Part shown: piece after piece, positions 5,302 to 14,051 of the stretch | Layout: every line of letters starts with the position of its first letter | How positions within the stretch are numbered: the first letter of the stretch is position 1 | Source: an uncultured Rickettsiales bacterium | GTDB taxonomy: Bacteria; Pseudomonadota; Alphaproteobacteria; Rickettsiales; Arcanibacteraceae | DNA: 24,000 nucleotides | Reading direction: 5' to 3' | Assembly: GCA_964643145.1 (NCBI GenBank) | Contig: CAZXPG010000012.1 | Coordinates: 3,485 to 27,484, forward strand | The notes under the pieces: model-generated | What the model was told of the DNA's origin: nothing | What the model saw: the letters and a program-made list of their open reading frames with translations, nothing else | Database searches by the model: none | Translations under genes and position numbers: made by a program

Positions 5302-5388
5302 CCCCCCTCTTTCCCTCCTTTTAAAAATTCGCTCTATTTTTATGCTATACTGCGCACGAATGAAGCGTGGCCCAACTCATCATTCGTG

Positions 5389-5440
5389 ATATGCTGCTCA
5401 CATTACAACTTAACCAAGTCTTGAACTGTGAGCAGTATAT
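5389..5440 (-). repeat. Palindromic repeat element, copy A (inverted relative to B and C)
   Basis: Arms atatgctgctcaca (5389-5402) and tgtgagcagtatat (5427-5440) flank a 24-nt spacer. The reverse complement matches copy B along its whole length, with a few substitutions. A separate 9-bp hairpin (5355-5363 with 5380-5388) lies immediately upstream. Confidence 0.85.
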
Positions 5441-5661
5441 ACCCAATAAAAGGAGTTTTTATCATCGTTTCATAAGTGTTTTCCACTTGCCTGATGCGCA
5501 TTATAAATCCTATTGTATATTTATAAAAAAAATATATACTAGGATGTATATATACATGTCTTTCTTAACTGAAATGTTAACCGGAAGCATATTGATGATG
5601 GCTACATATCTCACGTAAGTATTGTCTTTTACTGTAGGTTATGCCGTATTTTTTATGATAT

Positions 5662-7803
5662 ATGTTTAGGCAAGCAATTATGGATACACTATATGATTGG
5701 CTACCTGGAGACGACGATCTACGGACGTTACAGGATATAAAAAATACGTTACCTGGCTATGAAGCTGGTGCTATACACCCACTCGTACGGTTGTTTGAAA
5801 ACCCTGTTTCACCTATTGCCTTCAAAGGTGCTATTAGTTTGGAACGCCATGATTATGTGCATATTGTGCTTAATCGCGGGTTAACACCGCAAGATGAAGC
5901 CTTTGTATTAGGCTTTACGATGGGCACCTCGAAAAATGTTTCCTCGCTTGAGGTGTTCGTCTATGAAGAAATCACCAAATATCTTTATCCTCGTGAATAT
6001 AAATTTGATGACGATCTGCTCAAGGTCTTTGAACTAGGGCTACATTATGGCAAAAAATGTGATGTTGACCATATTTACGAATTCCCTTTTGAAGAGTGGA
6101 AACACTGCACATTAAGAGAAATACGGCAAAAGCTAAAGCTCAATATGCAGGAATTACAAGAAGTCTATTATGAGGAACAACAACAGCTTCCTGATAGTTT
6201 TGTAAGTAAACGCTTGCTCACAACGATGCCGACTTCTACTGAACATGCCGCAAAAAAAGTAGCAAATTCAAATACTAATCTTCATAAAATGGATACTATT
6301 ATGGCTGATGATACCGGGGATATTCGTACCTATACTATGTATCCTCGTATTGAAGGGTTGATCGTTACCTTGGTGATGCTGATTTCAATATGTAGTACGG
6401 CATATTTTATCTATGTACGCGCCTTAGATGCTGTGCAGGCCGAGATTCAGGGGGGGCTGTTACGTTCTGCCTATGCCATTGTAAATACCTCTATTGATCC
6501 CGAGCTCCACAAGACCTTTACCAAAGCTGAAGATGAAAAAACGGAAGCCTACCAAAAAGCAATACGGCCACTTGAACGTCTGCTGGAAACTGACCCAGAA
6601 ATACGTTTTACCTATACAAACGTATTGCGCGATGGCAAAGCCTATTTTGTTATGGATGGTACACCCGATGGCGATTGGGATAAGGATGGAGTACCTGATC
6701 AAGTAGGTGTCATGGAACTCTATAATGATGCGAGTGATGATTTGATGACTGCCCTAAAAGAGCAGAAAGTCGTGGTATCACGGGAACCTTACCAGGATAA
6801 ATGGGGATGGTTTGTGAGTGCACAAGTGCCTTTTTATGATAAAAATCATAATTTTGTTGGTGTCTATGTACTTTCTGTTGACGCAAGAAAATATTTTGAG
6901 CACCTAGAACCTATACAGCGCGCTACCATACGTGCAGTTATCCTTGGTGTGCTGCTTTCCGTTTTAGGAGGGATTACGGTCTGGTTCCTGCGCCGCTTCT
7001 CTGAACAGATTAATAATAGCCGTATGCGGTTGGTGACTGATTTAAAAGATGTAATAGGAAACACTCGCTCGTCCTCAAAGAAAAATATCGATATTGTTTC
7101 CAATATCACCCGTAGCATCAGTACCTCTGTTAACCGCGTAAAAGATCTTGCACAAATACAATTAGCACAATCCTCTGACAGCCGTAATACGCGTGAATTA
7201 GAGGTGTTAATGCGTTCCAGCGATGAGGTGTTACAGGTGCTCAATGATATGGTGGAACTGCTTTCGCTTCAAAATAATCTAGTGGTTTCCACCAAAGACA
7301 AAGTGCGGTTAGAACATATAGTGAATGATGTCATACAGATGATGTCATCACATAATTCATCGCGCAACATCGAGGTTTCACTCAGCGAAAGCACCGTGCT
7401 TTCGCAAGTGGTGATGGCTGATGCCCATTCTATCCAGCAACTTTTCAAGCATATCATAAGCAATGCAGTACGACACACCGATTCCTCAAAAGTGATGCTT
7501 GCAAGTAATGTGCTGGAAGAACTTGAAAATACTATTAATGTACAATTTACCATCGCTATTGATACCACTGCTAACACTAATGGTGAAGCCGCCAGCAAGA
7601 TATTAAAAGCCTTCCTGCACGATACCAGCAGTGGAACCGATAACCAGCTTAATATAACCGATATTGGCCTGGCAATCAGTAAAAACCTTGTTACGTTAAT
7701 GAAAGGAACAATAACCGCTGAAAGCAGTGAAAATAGCGTTAAGATTATCATTACGTTACTCTTAGATAAATCAAGTCCTACCGAAACACTTAATGTCGCT
7801 TGA
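5662..7803 (+). CDS. Membrane sensor protein: N-terminal Coq4-like domain, extracytoplasmic Cache/PDC-like domain, degenerate HisKA/HATPase_c (pseudo histidine kinase)
   Basis: Uninterrupted 713-aa ORF. Near residues 60-85 it has HDYVH-x11-E. Two TM segments (IVTLVMLISICSTAYFIYV and AVILGVLLSVLGGITVWFL) flank a domain of about 170 aa. The C-terminal part aligns by eye to HisKA plus HATPase_c: the N-box SNAVRHT and the G2-like DIGLAISKNLVTLM are present, but the H-box reads SNITRS and the G1 box is lost. An alternative start is ATG 5680. Confidence 0.75.
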   Translation: MFRQAIMDTLYDWLPGDDDLRTLQDIKNTLPGYEAGAIHPLVRLFENPVSPIAFKGAISLERHDYVHIVLNRGLTPQDEAFVLGFTMGTSKNVSSLEVFVYEEITKYLYPREYKFDDDLLKVFELGLHYGKKCDVDHIYEFPFEEWKHCTLREIRQKLKLNMQELQEVYYEEQQQLPDSFVSKRLLTTMPTSTEHAAKKVANSNTNLHKMDTIMADDTGDIRTYTMYPRIEGLIVTLVMLISICSTAYFIYVRALDAVQAEIQGGLLRSAYAIVNTSIDPELHKTFTKAEDEKTEAYQKAIRPLERLLETDPEIRFTYTNVLRDGKAYFVMDGTPDGDWDKDGVPDQVGVMELYNDASDDLMTALKEQKVVVSREPYQDKWGWFVSAQVPFYDKNHNFVGVYVLSVDARKYFEHLEPIQRATIRAVILGVLLSVLGGITVWFLRRFSEQINNSRMRLVTDLKDVIGNTRSSSKKNIDIVSNITRSISTSVNRVKDLAQIQLAQSSDSRNTRELEVLMRSSDEVLQVLNDMVELLSLQNNLVVSTKDKVRLEHIVNDVIQMMSSHNSSRNIEVSLSESTVLSQVVMADAHSIQQLFKHIISNAVRHTDSSKVMLASNVLEELENTINVQFTIAIDTTANTNGEAASKILKAFLHDTSSGTDNQLNITDIGLAISKNLVTLMKGTITAESSENSVKIIITLLLDKSSPTETLNVA

Positions 7804-7901
7804 TCGTATGGTAAATAAGTATAAGCTTAGTTTTGGATAGCGGTGACTTGTCCATACTGAGGTTAAGTATAACTATATCACCTTAAATACTAAAAAATGG
7901 T

Positions 7902-7957
7902 ATATATACTGCTCACAGTTCAAGAATTAGTTAGGTTGCAATGTGAGCAGTATATAT
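7902..7957 (+). repeat. Palindromic repeat element, copy B (best-preserved copy)
   Basis: Perfect 16-bp inverted arms atatatactgctcaca (7902-7917) and tgtgagcagtatatat (7942-7957) flank the 24-nt spacer gttcaagaattagttaggttgcaa. It lies between the sensor gene and the MFS gene. Confidence 0.9.
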
Positions 7958-8016: not shown

Positions 8017-9243
8017 ATGAGTGCTAATCCAGAAAATTTTTCTAAACAGCTAATGGCGGTGGCGGTTATTTTCTTTAGTATGCTTGGAGCTGGCACCTCA
8101 ATGGGGATGAATGCGGTAATATTCTCTATAAGCCTGAAGGATATGGACTGCCCCAGTATGATGATTGGTGCCATTTTAAGCCTAGAAATGCTGGCTATTC
8201 TGCTTACCCATGTTGCCTTATCAAGGTTTCCCGAAACACATCCACGTGTTTTTATGCTAGCATCAATGCTGTTCCGTATTACAGCATTGATAGTGATGCC
8301 TTTTTTCCTGACACCTCAATATTGGGTTATACTGATCATCATCCACGGGTTTGGAATGTTTACCTTCTTGATGCTGTTACAATCATGGCTTAATGCGATT
8401 CCCATTCAGAAATGTCGTGGCTTACTAATGTCAACATGGGGAACGGCACTTTCCATTGGGCTTACGGTTGGGCCTATGATTGTGACGGTAACCGAAGACC
8501 CTGCGCTTCCGGCATTACTCAAACCTATTCCCTATTTGCATGTATATGCTGATCATCTTCCCTTTTTAATCAGTACATTGATTAGTTTTATAGCCGTAAT
8601 ACCCATTCTTCTTGGTTGGTCACTGGCCCCAATGATAAAGCATAATAAATCTATCAAATCTATGACGATGCTTAAAGCCGAGCCGGTAGTAATGGCGGCA
8701 GGGTTGCTGGTGGGATGTTCTATTTTTGGGGTACAATCCTTTATCACACTTTATGGTATGATGAATAATCTTAATCTGCATGATGCGTTATTACTGTTAT
8801 CGGCATTTATGTTTGGGGCTTTCACTTTAGAAGCACCAATTGCAACATTATCCGATATCTTTAAGCGCGAAAAAGTCATGATGATTGCAGCGGGGGTTGG
8901 GCTTATATGCGCAGCTTGCTTACCTATTGTTATCTATAACCAATATCAGTCTTGGCTTTTGCTCTATATTTGGGGAGGGGTTGATTCGGCGATGTTTTCC
9001 ATTTCTCTCGCGACATTGGGGGAACGTTTTAGTAAAGACTATCTGATTGTTGCAAACCGTACATTCTTTACCATGCACGTGATAGGAGGTGCTATTGGTG
9101 CATTTATGATAGGTACAATTATGGAATTGTTCCAGTCAGATGGATTACCTTACAGTATCATGATTGCTACTGTTATCTATATTGTATACAGCCTTGCATA
9201 TTATATTTCATCCATGGGTCGAGAGGAAAAAATAGTTGTATGA
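8017..9243 (+). CDS. MFS-type transporter, substrate unknown
   Basis: 408-aa ORF that is almost entirely hydrophobic, with about 12 predicted TM helices arranged as two halves around a central loop (KHNKSIKSMTMLK). I recognised no specific subfamily motif. Confidence 0.8.
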   Translation: MSANPENFSKQLMAVAVIFFSMLGAGTSMGMNAVIFSISLKDMDCPSMMIGAILSLEMLAILLTHVALSRFPETHPRVFMLASMLFRITALIVMPFFLTPQYWVILIIIHGFGMFTFLMLLQSWLNAIPIQKCRGLLMSTWGTALSIGLTVGPMIVTVTEDPALPALLKPIPYLHVYADHLPFLISTLISFIAVIPILLGWSLAPMIKHNKSIKSMTMLKAEPVVMAAGLLVGCSIFGVQSFITLYGMMNNLNLHDALLLLSAFMFGAFTLEAPIATLSDIFKREKVMMIAAGVGLICAACLPIVIYNQYQSWLLLYIWGGVDSAMFSISLATLGERFSKDYLIVANRTFFTMHVIGGAIGAFMIGTIMELFQSDGLPYSIMIATVIYIVYSLAYYISSMGREEKIVV

Positions 9244-9704
9244 TAAATATACTACTCACAGTTCAAGAATTGGTTAGGTTGCAATGTGAGCAGACTATGC
9301 TTGAGTGCAAGCAATGCTGCATAAAGCAGGCATTGCGCGGCATTTCCGCGTTCCCTGCATTCTGCAGGAACGTAAAAATAAGGACTATACTGAAACCACT
9401 CTTCAAGTGGTTTCAGTACATCACTCCCAAAAAATGGCTGCTTCCATTCTCTGTGATGCTATTACTATCTATAGGAGCGGCCGCTAACGCAGAATACCAC
9501 AAAGAAACTCAAGAAGAGCGCACAATGCGAGTGGGGTTATGCCAGCAGAGGTGTTTTCTATCAGAAAAGCATTGCCTTTATGGTGTCGCTGAAGATAGCC
9601 ATTCTTCCAGCGAAGAGAAACAACAGAAAACGACAGAATGTGCTACAATACATGAAAAATGCCATAAAGGCTGTGATGTCGATTTGGTGCTTGGGGGGCA
9701 ATAA
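9240..9704 (+). CDS. Doubtful ORF; if real, probably only the C-terminal small Cys-rich protein starting at GTG 9453 or ATG 9456
   Basis: The ATG at 9240 overlaps the MFS stop codon as ATGA, but the first ~60 codons are read straight through the palindrome mosaic. Residues 64-84 (KKWLLPFSVMLLLSIGAAANA) look like a signal peptide. The tail has 7 Cys, including CQQRC and CHKGC. No homology was recognised. Confidence 0.3.
   Translation: MINILLTVQELVRLQCEQTMLECKQCCIKQALRGISAFPAFCRNVKIRTILKPLFKWFQYITPKKWLLPFSVMLLLSIGAAANAEYHKETQEERTMRVGLCQQRCFLSEKHCLYGVAEDSHSSSEEKQQKTTECATIHEKCHKGCDVDLVLGGQ
9246..9418 (+). repeat. Mosaic of palindromic units: copy C of the element plus five further hairpins
   Basis: Copy C has arms at 9246-9260 and 9285-9298 (11 of 14 positions pair) and the same 24-nt spacer. 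The further hairpins are 9298-9303/9308-9313, 9311-9320/9326-9336, 9336-9340/9346-9350, 9349-9359/9363-9372, and a 13-bp stem 9388-9400/9406-9418. Parts of this mosaic recur in inverted orientation at 15413-15498. Confidence 0.85.
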
Positions 9705-11502: not shown

Positions 11503-11931
11503 TTAGAAAGGCTTTATTACCACCAATAATACGATTGCTATCATGATTACTGTTGGTACCTCGTTAATGAAGCGGTAAAAACGGGCAGTATGATGGTTAG
11601 TTCCACGGTTAAAATCTTTCCGCCATTTGGCAAGCATCCCATGCAGGGCAGCAAGTATCAGCACCAACAATATCTTCACATGAAACCAGCCGCCTAAGCC
11701 TTGCATTCCCAGCTTGGCTACCAACCAGCCACCAAAGATAAACGTGGCAATCATCGCCGGGTTGATAATATAGCGAAGCAACCGCCGTTCCATCGTTTGC
11801 AGTAACACATCACTCTCAGAACCCACCGTTACAGTTGCATGATAGACATAGAGCCGCGGTAAGTAAAGCATACCTGCCATCCAGGAGATTACAGCAATAA
11901 TATGTAAGGCTTTCAGTAGGAGATAATCCAT
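11503..11931 (-). CDS. hemJ: Protoporphyrinogen IX oxidase HemJ (UPF0093/CopD-like family)
   Basis: Starting at MDYLLLKALHIIAVISWMAGMLYLPRLYVYH gives a 142-aa four-TM protein typical of HemJ. That ATG (11931) lies 4 nt after the hemH stop codon. The longer ORF in the track (to 12090) would overlap hemH. Confidence 0.8.
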   Translation of the reverse strand: MDYLLLKALHIIAVISWMAGMLYLPRLYVYHATVTVGSESDVLLQTMERRLLRYIINPAMIATFIFGGWLVAKLGMQGLGGWFHVKILLVLILAALHGMLAKWRKDFNRGTNHHTARFYRFINEVPTVIMIAIVLLVVIKPF

Positions 11932-11935
11932 TATG

Positions 11936-13009
11936 TTATTTCCTTTGCGCTGCGCATTTACCAAATTTTCCTGGGCAGTGATTACAGTTGTTATTCTCAT
12001 TACCAGAGAAAATAGTATAATCGCCTTCACTGTCCCAATTAGCAACGGTCTGGCACAGGCTACTGAGTGCCTCAATAAATAACGGCTCAATACCTAAAGC
12101 AGGTACGCGTATATAAGCAGGTATAGCGTGTTTCTGGGCCAGTTCACGATATTCAATATCAAGTTCCACCAATGTCTCTGAATGTTCCGATACAAATGCA
12201 ATAGGCACTACCACTACAGGCACGTTGTCCTTTCCTGCCCGAATAATTTCTTCTTCAGTCGATGGGCCTATCCATTTCAATGGCCCTACTTTGCTTTGAT
12301 AGGAGATAACCCAGTCCGGCTGTTTGGTTTTTAGGGTAAATGCTGCAACAATGAAAGCAACGGTTTGTTCGACTTGCCACTGATACGGATCACCCGCGTC
12401 AATCACTTTTTGCGGTAAACCATGCGCTGAAAAAATGATACGTGGCTCACCCGCTTTTGTTGCTTCCGCATAACAAGGCTCAATAGCGTTTAGATGGGCG
12501 GTAATAAAATGTGTGTTGTTATGATAACAGCATATAGCCTTAGTTTTAACATTAAACTGTTGTTTTACTGCTTCCTCTTTCCAATTTTTAAAGGAAGAGG
12601 CTGTAGTGGTGGTGGAGAATTGTGGGTAAAGGGGAAGAAGAATAACTTCATCAGGCCCATAAAGCTTCACTTTATTAACAATTTCATCACTAAACGGATA
12701 CCAATAACGCATAGAGATAAATACTTTATAGCTATTTTCACTATTTGGTATATTAGCTAAATGTTCTTCTAACGCATGTTGTTGCTGCATGGTAGAAGGC
12801 AGAATAGGGGAATAGCCCCCCATTTGAGCATAGATAGCCTCGGCCATAGCAGCACGTTTCTTGGTAATACAGGTGGCTATAAAGGAGCGTAAGGGCTTGG
12901 GTACATTTAAAATAGCAGGATCATTGAATAGGTTAAGCAGGAAGGGTTGTACCGCTTCTATACTATCTGGGCCACCAAGATTAAAAAGAACAACCGCTAT
13001 TTTTTTCAC
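11936..13009 (-). CDS. hemH: Ferrochelatase
   Basis: Contains VVLFNLGGPD, LPLYPQFS..TT, FSAHGLP and VSEHSETL. There is a C-terminal Cys-rich extension (C-x22-C-x2-C-x6-C). Confidence 0.95.
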   Translation of the reverse strand: MKKIAVVLFNLGGPDSIEAVQPFLLNLFNDPAILNVPKPLRSFIATCITKKRAAMAEAIYAQMGGYSPILPSTMQQQHALEEHLANIPNSENSYKVFISMRYWYPFSDEIVNKVKLYGPDEVILLPLYPQFSTTTTASSFKNWKEEAVKQQFNVKTKAICCYHNNTHFITAHLNAIEPCYAEATKAGEPRIIFSAHGLPQKVIDAGDPYQWQVEQTVAFIVAAFTLKTKQPDWVISYQSKVGPLKWIGPSTEEEIIRAGKDNVPVVVVPIAFVSEHSETLVELDIEYRELAQKHAIPAYIRVPALGIEPLFIEALSSLCQTVANWDSEGDYTIFSGNENNNCNHCPGKFGKCAAQRK

Positions 13010-13016
13010 ACATCAC

Positions 13017-14051
13017 CTATAAGTTGCGCACCGTGTTAATCATAATCTCAACATTCTCTATGGGCGTTTCTGGCAATATGCCATGTCCTAGATTATAAAT
13101 AAAGGGGCGATTACGAAATGCAGTACAGATTTTTGTTGTTCGTTCGATAAGAGTAGTGTTATTGCCCAATAATAATAAAGGATCAAGGCATCCTTGCAGG
13201 GTTATAGTGTTAGGAATATGGCTATTAACCCAGGATAGTGGCATATATTGGTCGATACTTAGGCCATTTATACCAGTTTTTGTAGCATAACGTTCATATT
13301 CTATACCAGCCCCTTTAGGAAAACCAATAATAGGAACGTTAGGGTGGAGTATATGTATGGAATCTACAATTTTTTTAGTTGGTTCGATGACAAAGCGGGT
13401 AAACTCATCTTCTGCTAAAATACCTGACCAGGAATCAAATAATTGTATTACTTCAGCACCTGCACGTATTTGTGCATCGATATGCAGGATCGTTGCTTCG
13501 GTTAGGATGGATATCAACCTGGAAAGCAGTTCAGGTGATGAATAGGCCATCGTTTTAGCAAGAATGAAATCCCTACTACTTCTGCCTTCAATCATGTAGG
13601 TGGCTACGGTCCAAGGACTTCCTGCGAATCCTATTAATGCTGTAGTTGTGGGAAGTTTAGCAGAAATTGAACTTACTGCTTCATATACCGGTGCTAAGTG
13701 AGAAAGAACATTCTCAATTTTTAACCGTTGTAGATCTTTTTCTTCACGTATGGGTGCAACAACAGGGCCCTCTCCTTCTTTGAAGGTAACATTATTTCCA
13801 AGTGCATCAGGAATAACCAATATATCAGAGAATAAAATAGCAGCATCGCATCCAAATCTTCGTATAGGTTGTAATGTTACTTCCACTGCAAGAGCAGGGG
13901 TGTAGCATAATGTTAGGAATGAACCTGCTTGTTGTCGAATTTTGCGATATTCAGGGAGATATCTGCCTGCTTGTCGCATCATCCATAGTGGAGGTGAAGA
14001 ACAGCTATGGCCGTAAAGTGCTTGAAGGATGGGTTTCTTGGAGTGAAGCAT
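13017..14051 (-). CDS. hemE: Uroporphyrinogen decarboxylase
   Basis: Contains the UROD signature PPLWMMRQAGRYLPEYR, plus FSDILV and GFAG.PWT motifs. It is transcribed away from the adjacent DnaA-box region. Confidence 0.95.
   Translation of the reverse strand: MLHSKKPILQALYGHSCSSPPLWMMRQAGRYLPEYRKIRQQAGSFLTLCYTPALAVEVTLQPIRRFGCDAAILFSDILVIPDALGNNVTFKEGEGPVVAPIREEKDLQRLKIENVLSHLAPVYEAVSSISAKLPTTTALIGFAGSPWTVATYMIEGRSSRDFILAKTMAYSSPELLSRLISILTEATILHIDAQIRAGAEVIQLFDSWSGILAEDEFTRFVIEPTKKIVDSIHILHPNVPIIGFPKGAGIEYERYATKTGINGLSIDQYMPLSWVNSHIPNTITLQGCLDPLLLLGNNTTLIERTTKICTAFRNRPFIYNLGHGILPETPIENVEIMINTVRNL

Follow-up and report, generated by a model that had tools for sequence, protein, structure and literature searches.

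The window, by which we mean the whole 24 kb stretch of DNA analysed here, carries on its plus strand (5662-7803) a single reading frame of 713 codons, which is a real gene and in which a Coq4-like domain is followed by a membrane sensor with a degenerate histidine kinase core. Taken as a whole, this arrangement is best explained, with moderate confidence, as a fusion of two genes, comprising a sensor that would be independent of phosphotransfer and partnered with an MFS transporter, and a Coq4-like domain that would have been added to it in this lineage specifically.

According to this explanation, two formerly separate neighbouring genes would have become one: a one-base change in the A-run of the junction would have brought the two reading frames into phase, and the ensuing lineage-specific read-through would have joined the Coq4-like half to the sensor, anchoring it on the cytoplasmic side of the membrane. 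The sensor half (residues 210-713), which we infer to work without phosphotransfer, would have its ligand, probably a biogenic amine or a basic amino acid, in the periplasm, and would make protein-protein contacts with the neighbouring MFS transporter so as to act on it or together with it, while the dead kinase core would persist as a dimerisation or scaffold module. Such contacts are proposed by analogy with UhpC/UhpB, DctA/DcuS and LysP/CadC, and, as the window holds no decarboxylase, the link to amines is one of association only.

The fused reading frame and its junction

The features of the gene are the following:
5662-7803, plus strand: fused ORF, 713 aa (713 codons); public gene calls begin at Met7 and give 707 aa
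5662-6222, plus strand: Coq4-like domain, residues 1-187, matching the standalone ~185-aa family from end to end, all-helical and predicted to be cytoplasmic
5848-5898, plus strand: putative metal site HDYVH-x11-E (H63, D64, H67, E79), invariant in a 36-sequence alignment
6223-6288, plus strand: junction of 22 codons (66 nt; TMPTSTEHAAKKVANSNTNLHK), interpreted as once intergenic; the A7 run occupies 6252-6258
6289-6291, plus strand: Met210, apparently the retained ancestral start codon of the sensor kinase, from which homologue N-termini align
6355-6423, plus strand: TM helix 1, about residues 232-254 (Kyte-Doolittle maximum of 2.2 over 19 residues; helical in the model)
6424-6927, plus strand: periplasmic sensor of PDC/Cache fold, about residues 255-422 (AF2, Foldseek and Pfam matches of homologues)
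6670-6699, plus strand: conserved acidic loop GDWDKDGVPD within the sensor domain
6928-6999, plus strand: TM helix 2, about residues 423-446 (hydrophobicity), followed by an Arg-rich cytoplasmic stretch (RRFSEQINNSRMR)
7048-7419, plus strand: degenerate DHp (HisKA-like) region (alignments to kinases and homologues; no HisKA Pfam match)
7099-7128, plus strand: H-box remnant SNITRSISTS, with Arg484 at the phospho-acceptor position (7111-7113)
7420-7758, plus strand: degenerate CA (HATPase_c) region, residues 587-699 (Pfam PF02518, 31.9 bits, E=2e-7)
7561-7578, plus strand: G1 remnant DTTANT (column analysis), the G2 remnant being NITDIGL

The 707-aa product is identical in two Logan assemblies, L001 and L002, which represent two slightly differing strains. 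The first matches the window at every position (100%) and may share source data with it; the second (run SRR35566598) differs from the window by 4 SNPs and no gaps over 4528 nt, two of these SNPs lying inside the ORF and both being synonymous. The fusion is judged real because the same product is found in both assemblies, one of them SNP-distinct and carrying the same A7 run, and this also answers the possibility, raised by a previous reading of the sequence alone, that a sequencing error had joined two genes. The single ORF and the order of domains given by that reading (Coq4-like, TM, PDC sensor, TM, degenerate kinase) are both borne out. Indeed, its claim that the architecture is undescribed agrees with a phmmer search run exhaustively over 1.84 billion representatives, in which the protein itself was alone in spanning both halves, and with the literature searched, in which no description of a Coq4-like/sensor fusion was found. 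Scans of the ORF with Pfam and NCBIfam returned HATPase_c and generic kinase matches only, those to Coq4, Cache and HisKA being absent.

The junction has the look of DNA that once separated two genes. Members of the N-terminal domain family terminate at ..SKRLPV* in the family alignment, and the homologous sensor proteins P0002, P0099 and P0104 begin at the position of Met210, a column occupied by Met in 92% of the other sequences of a 53-homologue alignment. Between these two points, replacing the A7 run by A6 creates a stop at codon 200, and replacing it by A8 a stop at codon 206, so that either change yields exactly two well-formed genes. The A-run as the route to fusion is nevertheless what we infer from these letters: no unfused relative of exactly this locus was found, nor were Coq4-like and sensor genes found adjacent or fused in another genome (about 80 loci of the N-terminal family, 76 MFS-related loci and the 1.84 billion representatives).

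The N-terminal Coq4-like domain

The N-terminal domain belongs to a widespread and uncharacterised family, a remote and shortened relative of Coq4 in which the metal motif is kept. Its homologues form 73 protein clusters, with up to 62% identity and nearly all about 180-235 aa in length, on which no precomputed Pfam domain is recorded, and the standalone family occurs in at least 295 species genomes, including Rickettsiales MAGs, Pirellulales, Cellvibrio and Kuenenia. All of the 31 columns that are invariant in the 36-member family alignment are kept in the fused copy (31/31), whose AF2 model has a pLDDT of 92. The HDxxH-x11-E signature is present as the sequence-only reading had described it (HDYVH at residues 63-67, then E79).

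That reading had further assigned the domain to the Coq4 family, which holds at the level of the superfamily and fails at that of the Pfam family. Indeed, alignments place the signature in register with the motif of Coq4 (PF05019), as represented by eukaryotic COQ4 and the cyanobacterial proteins Npun02000094 (3MSQ) and Alr8543 (6E12); both families are all-helical and share a second, collinear C-terminal motif, [FW]E..L..[LI]R..LGI. Comparison of the family with a Coq4 mini-profile by hhalign gave a probability of 94% (E=1.4e-7, 136 columns), and comparison with the two PDB Coq4 sequences alone gave 50% (E=1.7e-4) in the same register, controls with a reversed sequence and a kinase profile reaching 0.3% and 0.2%. 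Pfam Coq4 matches in the correct register were obtained for 14 of the 36 family members, all of them sub-threshold (best E=0.0018; 11 bits for two members scanned singly, against a gathering threshold of 22.9 bits), and the best Foldseek match in the PDB, albeit a weak one (TM 0.37-0.39, E=0.28), was the Coq4-family structure 3MSQ. However, the Pfam scan gave no Coq4 match to the window protein even at E<=10, the search of PDB sequences with the family profile yielded one spurious match and nothing else, and the family, at ~185 aa, is missing about 80 positions at the N-terminal end of the Coq4 domain, which has 221.

COQ4 acts in ubiquinone biosynthesis through a metal-dependent C1 oxidative decarboxylation of membrane-embedded substrates, its HDxxH..E motif binding the metal and the D164A substitution abolishing function (PMC10680789). 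In contrast to Coq4, the N-terminal family has no ubiquinone-gene context: the neighbours of the eight closest members inspected vary, with no conserved neighbourhood of ubi genes or of any other kind, and here the domain is fused to a membrane protein. We found no evidence for quinone signalling by the fused protein, and the quinone link suggested earlier is not upheld for a family that falls under the Pfam threshold, is N-terminally short and has no constant neighbours. The idea that such Coq4-like genes normally lie beside a kinase was rejected, as no kinase adjoins them in about 80 loci examined (80-82) and their neighbours vary; the gene upstream of P0002, considered as a candidate family member, was likewise rejected, being an M50-like protein (hhalign probability 0.5%).

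The sensor, its kinase core and its genomic partners

The two TM helices enclose about 168 aa, as the earlier description of a Cache/PDC-like domain of ~170 aa had anticipated. The AF2 model of this domain (pLDDT 85.5) shows a long helix followed by a beta-sheet and retrieved 44 PDB structures by Foldseek at E<=1e-3, with the sensors of WalK, KinD, CitA, Tlp3 and CqsR among the top matches. Homologues match Pfam MCP-like_PDC_1 and dCache_1, P0100 passing the threshold of the former (28.6 versus 27), and identity to P0002 and P0099 is 46-48%. By these alignments the sensor domain is normally conserved, with 26 of the 32 conserved columns kept and a value within the homologue range (0.69-1.0), unlike the kinase core, where only 18 of the 57 conserved columns are kept (homologue median 0.95, minimum 0.39) and where the retention of 0.32 is the lowest of 54 sequences.

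That the C-terminus derives from a HisKA/HATPase_c kinase core is supported by the HATPase_c match, which exceeds the PF02518 cut-off of 26.4 bits, and by alignments to solved kinases; HisKA (PF00512) gave no match to the ORF in the Pfam scan. The previous proposal that the phospho-acceptor His is replaced by Asn stemmed from an alignment one turn off. Once ANMSHEIRTPLN of the homologues is paired with SNITRSISTSVN here, the residue replacing this His, which is present in 52 of the 53 homologues, is Arg484. Essentially the whole H-box is gone, the conserved columns lost from the DHp region being nine in all (A471S, K475N, F478I, L479V, S483T, H484R, E485S, R487S, P489S). The G1 box is degenerate, as had been noted (DTTANT versus DTGIGI in homologues; G636T, G638N), whereas G2, previously thought to be kept, has lost three of its four conserved glycines (NITDIGL versus GGTGLGL; G664N, G665I, G667D). 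The N-box does retain Asn601, as well as A602 and T606, with changes in the flanking positions (K604R, F605H, N597H). Judging by these motifs, the core has almost certainly lost productive ATP binding and autophosphorylation. The segment nonetheless still looks coding, with some 250 codons uninterrupted by a stop at a GC content of roughly 40% and a purine fraction of 0.69 at codon position 1. A receiver domain is absent from every ORF of the 24 kb window, which agrees with the earlier remark that no response regulator is encoded nearby. A rough NJ tree, computed without bootstrap, groups the window sensor with the intact kinases P0002 and P0099, outside the clade of histidine decarboxylase (HDC)-linked, pseudo-kinase and MFS-associated sensors, so that its kinase decay may be independent and recent.

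Downstream of the fused gene, the following features were identified, together with a palindromic element that also occurs upstream:
8017-9243, plus strand: MFS_1 transporter, 408 aa (Pfam MFS_1, E=5e-24), conserved neighbour of the sensor group
5382-5447, no strand assigned: palindromic element copy 1, about 55-60 nt, downstream of era and inverted relative to copy 2 (hairpin -22.6 kcal/mol, z=-6.1)
7897-7957, no strand assigned: palindromic element copy 2, downstream of the fused ORF (hairpin -26.7 kcal/mol, z=-6.2)
9240-9298, no strand assigned: palindromic element copy 3, 90% identical to copy 2, with one arm degenerate and overlapping the MFS stop codon

By gene order, the conserved genomic partners of the sensor, which the sequence-only reading had not seen, are an MFS transporter and amino-acid decarboxylases. 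Along its entire length, the window transporter is 31-35% identical to the MFS proteins encoded after P0104, itself another His-less kinase, and after P0102, and equally so to the gene following P0101, over the 155 aa available of that cut gene. Among the 31 best metagenome relatives of this transporter, 26 have a sensor directly upstream on the same strand; many of these 26 loci are near-identical populations, perhaps representing about 10 independent lineages. The window fits this layout, the fused ORF ending at 7803 and the homologous MFS gene beginning at 8017 on the same strand. Within the sensor/MFS group, the kinase core is repeatedly degenerate or absent: the sensors at these loci are either kinase-less proteins of 251-285 aa or proteins of 446-614 aa that end in a degenerate kinase tail of about 216-364 aa, for which HATPase_c scores of 24.6 bits (L102) and 26 bits (L103) were obtained, and L106-type tails align to intact kinase cores with an hhalign probability of 83%. 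A histidine decarboxylase (NCBIfam, 342-424 bits versus a cut-off of 305) or a PLP decarboxylase of DAP/ornithine type usually adjoins the sensor and transporter genes. No decarboxylase was detected in the 24 kb window by tblastn with three decarboxylase queries, and no Coq4-like N-terminal domain at 76 MFS-related loci; in the window, the Coq4-like part occupies the slot held by the decarboxylase in relatives, directly upstream of the sensor. No description of decarboxylase/PDC-sensor/MFS clusters was found in the literature searched.

As for the surrounding DNA, an AT-rich cassette between palindromic repeats had been proposed. Both the repeats and the low GC (0.36-0.44 over 5.5-9.5 kb, versus about 0.50 on either side) are present, but AT-richness is not specific to this region, and its value as a mark of a foreign cassette is weakened, since hemE and hemH show the same AT-richness at third codon positions (GC3 of 0.29-0.35). 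Nor are the palindromes supported as transposon ends. They are at least as likely to be REP-like or terminator-like elements, because each lies just 3' of a plus-strand gene and folds as a hairpin, copy 3 having no stable fold (z=+0.9). The pattern CTGCTCACA..TGTGAGCAG has 2 matches versus 0 expected, and Rfam has no match for these elements.

Alternative explanations and known systems

The fusion and the dead kinase core could also reflect genome decay: in a host-restricted bacterium, the kinase, or else the sensor half in its entirety, would be a non-functional relic, the fusion would be a neutral frameshift, and the Coq4-like part would be the only one, if any, that still matters. The record-low kinase retention is consistent with this, as are the Ser/Asn/Thr-rich composition of the core, an AT-rich neighbourhood with orphan ORFs, the absence of a partner response regulator from the window, and the fact that all tested housekeeping proteins are singletons at 90% identity, which indicates an isolated lineage. 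However, 504 codons of this AT-rich DNA are free of stops and show coding periodicity, conservation of the sensor domain is no lower than is usual among its homologues, and the differences between strains within the ORF are synonymous only, although there are just two of them. In addition, the sensor/MFS pairing is conserved over many lineages and degenerate tails as long as this one persist in the HDC clade, which argues for a selected pseudo-kinase state. We therefore consider decay fairly unlikely. An atypical kinase or phosphatase that is still active, through another residue or through a partner kinase in trans, would agree with the preserved fold length of DHp and CA, with the retention of Asn601, D587, Q593, D634 and part of G2, and with the presence of RetS structures among the PDB sequence matches; RetS forms heterodimers with a second histidine kinase and so modulates it, and DivL binds the phosphorylated form of a response regulator. 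The loss of G1 and of three G2 glycines, the absence of a kinase or regulator partner from the 24 kb window and the existence of close sensor relatives without any kinase part make it a very improbable reading.

The view taken by the sequence-only reading was that of a designed coupling, in which the Coq4-like domain would provide the sensor with a working input or output, for instance as a metal-binding, lipid/quinone-binding or enzymatic domain gated by the PDC ligand, with the dead kinase as transmission scaffold. In its favour are the integrity of every invariant family residue, metal site included, the persistence of the fusion in two strains with synonymous ORF differences only, the cytoplasmic location of both the N-terminal domain and the kinase core beside the membrane, the membrane-embedded nature of Coq4 substrates (PMC10680789), and the position of the Coq4-like gene in the decarboxylase slot. 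Yet no other fusion exists among the 1.84 billion representatives, no kinase adjoins the family at about 80 loci, the N-terminal domain is found at 0 of 76 MFS loci, and the family has neither a conserved neighbourhood nor a shown quinone link. The junction, moreover, resembles an accidental read-through of a spacer, with its A7 run and the ancestral start Met still present. The idea of two halves evolved as a wired signalling device is thus not supported, and we regard designed coupling as unlikely. A related possibility, that a Coq4-superfamily enzyme took by non-homologous replacement the decarboxylase slot of a decarboxylase/sensor/exporter module and was fused to its pseudo-kinase sensor, has only a small chance of being correct; were it true, the protein would be a ligand-gated, membrane-tethered enzyme, and the standalone ~185-aa family might be one of decarboxylases or oxygenases that act on small molecules and have no part in ubiquinone metabolism. 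Finally, a miscount of the A7 homopolymer could have joined a Coq4-like protein of ~199-205 aa to a 504-aa sensor in the assembly alone. One base more or fewer at 6252-6258 does give two well-formed genes, and L001 may derive from the window's own data, but the separate run of L002 keeps the A7 run in a gapless alignment with SNPs, and a run of this length is normally within short-read calling accuracy; an artefact is hence hardly credible.

Under the preferred reading, a fusion with a phosphotransfer-independent sensor, the fusion itself is a single-lineage event, possibly accidental, and the broader interest lies in its parts. A seemingly undescribed family of ~185 aa, outside the Pfam family and with the Coq4 metal site kept, offers a handle on the Coq4 fold beyond ubiquinone synthesis. 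The decarboxylase/PDC-sensor/MFS cluster, seemingly undescribed as well, provides a natural series from two-component sensor to phosphotransfer-independent transporter partner, and is a candidate for the means by which some bacteria sense or export histamine or other amines.

Among known systems, canonical PDC/Cache HisKA kinases (CitA/DcuS, KinD, WalK and, as nearest intact homologues, P0002, P0099 and P0100) share the topology TM, PDC, TM, DHp, CA. The fused protein differs from them by an additional N-terminal domain of about 210 aa, by the loss of the H-box His, G1 and most of G2 with HATPase_c still detectable, and by the lack of a HisKA match and of a nearby response regulator. Further counterparts are the metagenome clusters (L086, L090, L097-L123), whose sensors are 36-47% and downstream MFS transporters 26-38% identical to those of the window, and whose kinase core is degenerate, as in P0104 and in L102, L103 and the L106 type. 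In contrast to them, the window lacks a decarboxylase gene and is alone in having the Coq4-like N-terminal domain, and decay of its kinase core has gone less far than in the L106 type.

Pseudo-kinases and non-canonical kinases such as DivL (Tyr for His), RetS and the HK-like domain of RcsD have likewise kept the kinase fold while phosphotransfer was lost or bypassed, and in them, as here, protein-protein contact would be the expected mode of signalling; RcsD and RetS are indeed among the weak sequence matches of the fused protein. However, these proteins act on other two-component proteins, whereas the conserved partners here are an MFS transporter and decarboxylases, and none of them has a Coq4-like domain. 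Transporter/sensor pairs that sense jointly, namely UhpC-UhpB, DctA-DcuS, LysP-CadC and BceAB-BceS, similarly place a membrane sensor gene beside a transporter through which the sensor is proposed to work, LysP-CadC also involving an amino-acid decarboxylase system. The sensors of these pairs keep a working kinase or DNA-binding output, whereas in the fused protein no output domain is evident and the interaction is a proposed one.

The fused reading frame and its surroundings

The reading frame at 5662-7803 encodes a Coq4-like domain, a transmembrane helix, a PDC sensor, a second transmembrane helix and a degenerate kinase, in that order; the public gene call (P0001) starts at Met7 and yields 707 aa. 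This fusion is real and unique. Indeed, the identical protein is encoded by two Logan assemblies, one of which differs from the window by four SNPs; the reading frame contains two of these, both synonymous, and the junction sequence is unchanged. When 1.84 billion representatives were searched exhaustively with phmmer, the sole protein to span both halves was the query itself, the other top matches covering either residues 8-187 or residues 220-700. The sequence-only reading had suggested an undescribed signalling arrangement; the same domain order occurs nowhere else among these representatives.

Features of the window
5662-7803, + strand: fused reading frame, 713 aa
5382-5447: palindromic element (approx. 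55-60 nt), copy 1
7897-7957: palindromic element, copy 2
9240-9298: palindromic element, copy 3, degenerate
9240-9704, + strand: 154-aa reading frame, overlapping the stop codon of the MFS transporter gene; its first 59 nt are palindrome copy 3
6864-7244 and 7269-7751, - strand: antisense reading frames (126 and 160 aa) opposite the degenerate kinase region
11503-14051, - strand: hemJ (UPF0093)-hemH-hemE cluster, GC3 0.29-0.35
16270-16424, + strand: 6S RNA (Rfam RF00013, 60.5 bits)
16996-17706, 17774-20017 and 20082-21269, - strand: three successive reading frames (236, 747 and 395 aa) within AT-rich DNA

The fused frame follows lepB-rnc-era and precedes the MFS gene (8017-9243), a small unsupported reading frame and a convergent ABC exporter. 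This small 154-aa frame, without a match in family searches, is probably not a gene, and the antisense frames are probably a by-product of composition. The region had been described as an AT-rich cassette bracketed by palindromes. Low GC (0.36-0.44 over 5.5-9.5 kb versus approx. 0.50 on the flanks) and flanking palindromes are both present, but AT-richness is not specific to the cassette: hemE and hemH, in the same window, are equally AT-rich at third codon positions, so that AT-richness alone is no mark of foreign DNA. Compared with the GC3 of rnc, era and the ABC exporter (approx. 0.50), that of the hem cluster is unusually low, indicating a marked compositional heterogeneity of the genome that extends to housekeeping genes.

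Each palindrome (core CTGCTCACA..TGTGAGCAG) lies directly 3' of a + strand gene, namely era, the fused frame and the MFS gene. Copies 2 and 3 share one orientation, opposite to that of copy 1; copies 1 and 2 are 91% complementary and form strong hairpins (z approx. -6), and copy 3 has decayed. The element, for which Rfam gave no match, is a candidate REP-like repeat, terminator or mobile-element end.

Elsewhere in the window, the 6S RNA lies between zapA (15937-16257) and the 5-formyltetrahydrofolate cyclo-ligase gene (16431-17021), the same arrangement as in E. coli. Together with lepB-rnc-era, this gene order is suggestive of a gammaproteobacterium. None of the three products of 236, 747 and 395 aa has a Pfam match, and clustering at 90% identity left the two longer ones as singletons; these genes may be specific to the lineage and possibly serve host interaction.

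The Coq4-like domain and its family

Residues 1-187 make up an entire member of a family of standalone proteins. Using residues 1-217 as query retrieved 73 clusters (nearly all of approx. 180-235 aa, up to 62% identical), none with a precomputed Pfam domain. A species-genome scan placed the family in at least 295 loci from very different phyla, with hosts including Rickettsiales and other alphaproteobacterial MAGs, Pirellulales, Cellvibrio, Kordiimonas, Thermochlorobacter, Kuenenia and one Streptomyces. No conserved gene context was found among the family loci (L003-L082, match usually at 6001-6530). Other fusions occur now and then: in P0004 (476 aa) the domain is C-terminal, and P0179 is extended by 90 aa at its N-terminus.

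In a 36-sequence alignment of the family, 31 columns are invariant, H63, D64, H67 and E79 among them. The domain had been likened to Coq4 on the strength of this HDxxH..E signature, an idea that holds at superfamily level. Pfam Coq4 gave sub-threshold matches in 14 of the 36 members (best E=0.0018), and HDxxH fell on the Coq4 HDxxH in both members inspected individually. Profile comparison by hhalign returned a probability of 94% (E=1.4e-7, 136 columns, motif in register) with a Coq4 profile of three sequences, i.e. human COQ4 (confirmed by Pfam at E=6e-95) and the segments of 3MSQ and 6E12 as aligned in the PDB search. With only these two PDB sequences the probability was 50%, in unchanged register; the controls gave 0.3% (reversed sequence) and 0.2% (kinase profile). 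The AF2 model (pLDDT 92) had a member of the Coq4 family, 3MSQ, as its top, albeit weak, PDB match (E=0.28, TM 0.37-0.39). The family is thus a remote homologue of Coq4; it is not a member of PF05019, as it scores under Pfam's own threshold, and its members do not reach the length of the Coq4 domain. In the synthesis of coenzyme Q, COQ4 itself is responsible for the C1 oxidative decarboxylation; its HDxxH..E motif is a zinc-binding site, and the D164A substitution leaves the protein without function (PMC10680789).

Sensor, degenerate kinase and gene neighbourhood

Hydrophobic helices at approximately residues 232-254 and 423-446 enclose approximately 168 aa, in agreement with the Cache/PDC-like domain of about 170 aa read from the sequence. 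A model built from three sequences (pLDDT 85.5) had 44 PDB matches at E<=1e-3, with PDC/Cache sensor domains among the top ones, including WalK, KinD, CitA, Tlp3 and CqsR; matches of sensor homologues to MCP-like_PDC_1 and dCache_1 were weak to threshold-level. The domain contains an acidic loop:

6670-6699 (residues 337-346): GDWDKDGVPD, consensus GDxDxDGxxD, 81-96% conserved across the sensor family

This loop resembles the DxDxDG calcium-binding loop, and could bind a cationic amine instead of calcium.

Sensor conservation is normal, and the kinase core has lost its catalytic motifs. Among columns at least 80% conserved in 53 homologues sharing sensor and kinase, the window protein retains 26 of 32 in the sensor half (0.81; homologue range 0.69-1.0) and 18 of 57 in the kinase half (0.32; homologue median 0.95, minimum 0.39). 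The H-box is lost as a whole, together with G1, the F-box region and all but one of the four conserved glycines of G2. Residues 460-705 align with ordinary sensor kinases in NCBIfam and PDB sequence searches; the sole Pfam match of this half is HATPase_c (residues 587-699, E=2e-7), and scanning the fused protein with Pfam gave no HisKA match. In the NCBIfam, PDB and nearest-homologue alignments, ANMSHEIRTPLN is aligned with SNITRSISTSVN. Loss of the phospho-acceptor His, as proposed from the sequence, follows from this, but it is Arg484 that occupies its position and not the proposed Asn. The 53-homologue alignment bears out the loss of G1 (DTGIG to DTTAN) and the retention of the N-box (Asn601), and contradicts that of a G2-like box. 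The core presumably no longer phosphorylates.

Relatives of the sensor lie in a conserved neighbourhood of sensor, MFS transporter and decarboxylase. In P0104 (489 aa), which lacks the N-terminal domain, the same sensor is joined to a kinase that has degenerated independently: the His has become Glu, and neither the N-box nor G1 nor G2 survives. The P0104 gene stands between a histidine decarboxylase (HDC) gene and an MFS gene 31% identical, over full length, to that of the window. The sensor-only P0101 and P0102 are followed by the same MFS subfamily (34-35% identity), a DAP/ornithine-type decarboxylase precedes each of the intact kinases P0099 and P0100, and the frame after P0103 resembles, by eye, an Orn/DAP-type PLP decarboxylase. 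Scanning metagenomes with an MFS alignment gave 76 loci, with the sensor immediately upstream in 26 of the best 31; many of these 26 are near-duplicates, perhaps ten lineages being independent. Two layouts emerged:

— Type A, HDC, sensor (446-614 aa), MFS: L086 5856-9921 and L102-L123, e.g. L106 1445-5180 and L103 2401-6062. The decarboxylases score 342-424 bits against the NCBIfam HDC equivalog cut-off of 305. The sensor tail after the second helix (approx. 216-364 aa) is a degenerate kinase core, with HATPase_c scores of 24.6 (L102) and 26 bits (L103), and an hhalign probability of 83% between L106-type tails and intact kinase cores.

— Type B, sensor-only protein (251-258 aa), DAP/Orn-like decarboxylase, MFS: L097, L099 and L105.

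No description of the HDC/sensor/MFS cluster was found in the literature searched. A rough NJ tree groups the window sensor with P0002 and P0099 and places the HDC/pseudo-kinase/MFS clade next to them; the 24-kb window, though it has the MFS gene, encodes no decarboxylase. The sensor would probably act with the MFS transporter by contact, and close sensor relatives manage without any cytoplasmic domain. The sensor ligand may well be an amine or basic amino acid.

Origin and significance of the fusion

Standalone family members end in SKRLPV and a stop, where the fused frame has SKRLLT (residues 182-187); 22 codons then lead to Met210, the position at which P0002, P0099 and P0104 begin. Inside this junction lies a run of seven A (6252-6258): six A would give a stop at codon 200, eight A a stop at codon 206. 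In the simplest history, two neighbouring genes would have come into the same frame when this run gained or lost a single base, probably recently. The Coq4-like domain would then have been gained by accidental read-through and be merely tethered to the membrane. The same run could suggest a sequencing artefact, which is most improbable given the same run of seven in the Logan assembly that differs by four SNPs. The closest sensor-only relatives, P0101 (L089 4306-5487) and P0102 (L090 918-2492), are themselves extended at the N-terminus by unrelated sequence, of 143 and 272 aa, that includes an additional hydrophobic segment; N-terminal accretion onto the sensor has thus seemingly occurred more than once. 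A SET-domain protein is encoded upstream in L090.

Uniqueness of the domain order bears also on the possibility that the Coq4-like domain is coupled to the sensor by design: no kinase adjoins the family gene in 82 loci (80 of them family loci), no family gene occurs in the 76 MFS-related loci, and we consider such coupling quite unlikely. That the protein is a decaying relic, as the kinase losses might suggest, is unlikely too: the kinase segment keeps an open frame of approximately 250 codons in DNA of approximately 40% GC, with coding periodicity, next to a normally conserved sensor. An atypical kinase partner acting in trans has very little probability; the 24-kb window is free of receiver domains, as the sequence-only reading had stated for response regulators.

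The fusion is possibly fortuitous and confined to a single lineage. Two by-products may be of longer interest: a large Coq4-superfamily clade without assigned function, and the decarboxylase/sensor/MFS cluster, which shows serial kinase loss. Pseudo-histidine-kinases and PDC sensors are already known; the Coq4-like N-terminal partner is new.
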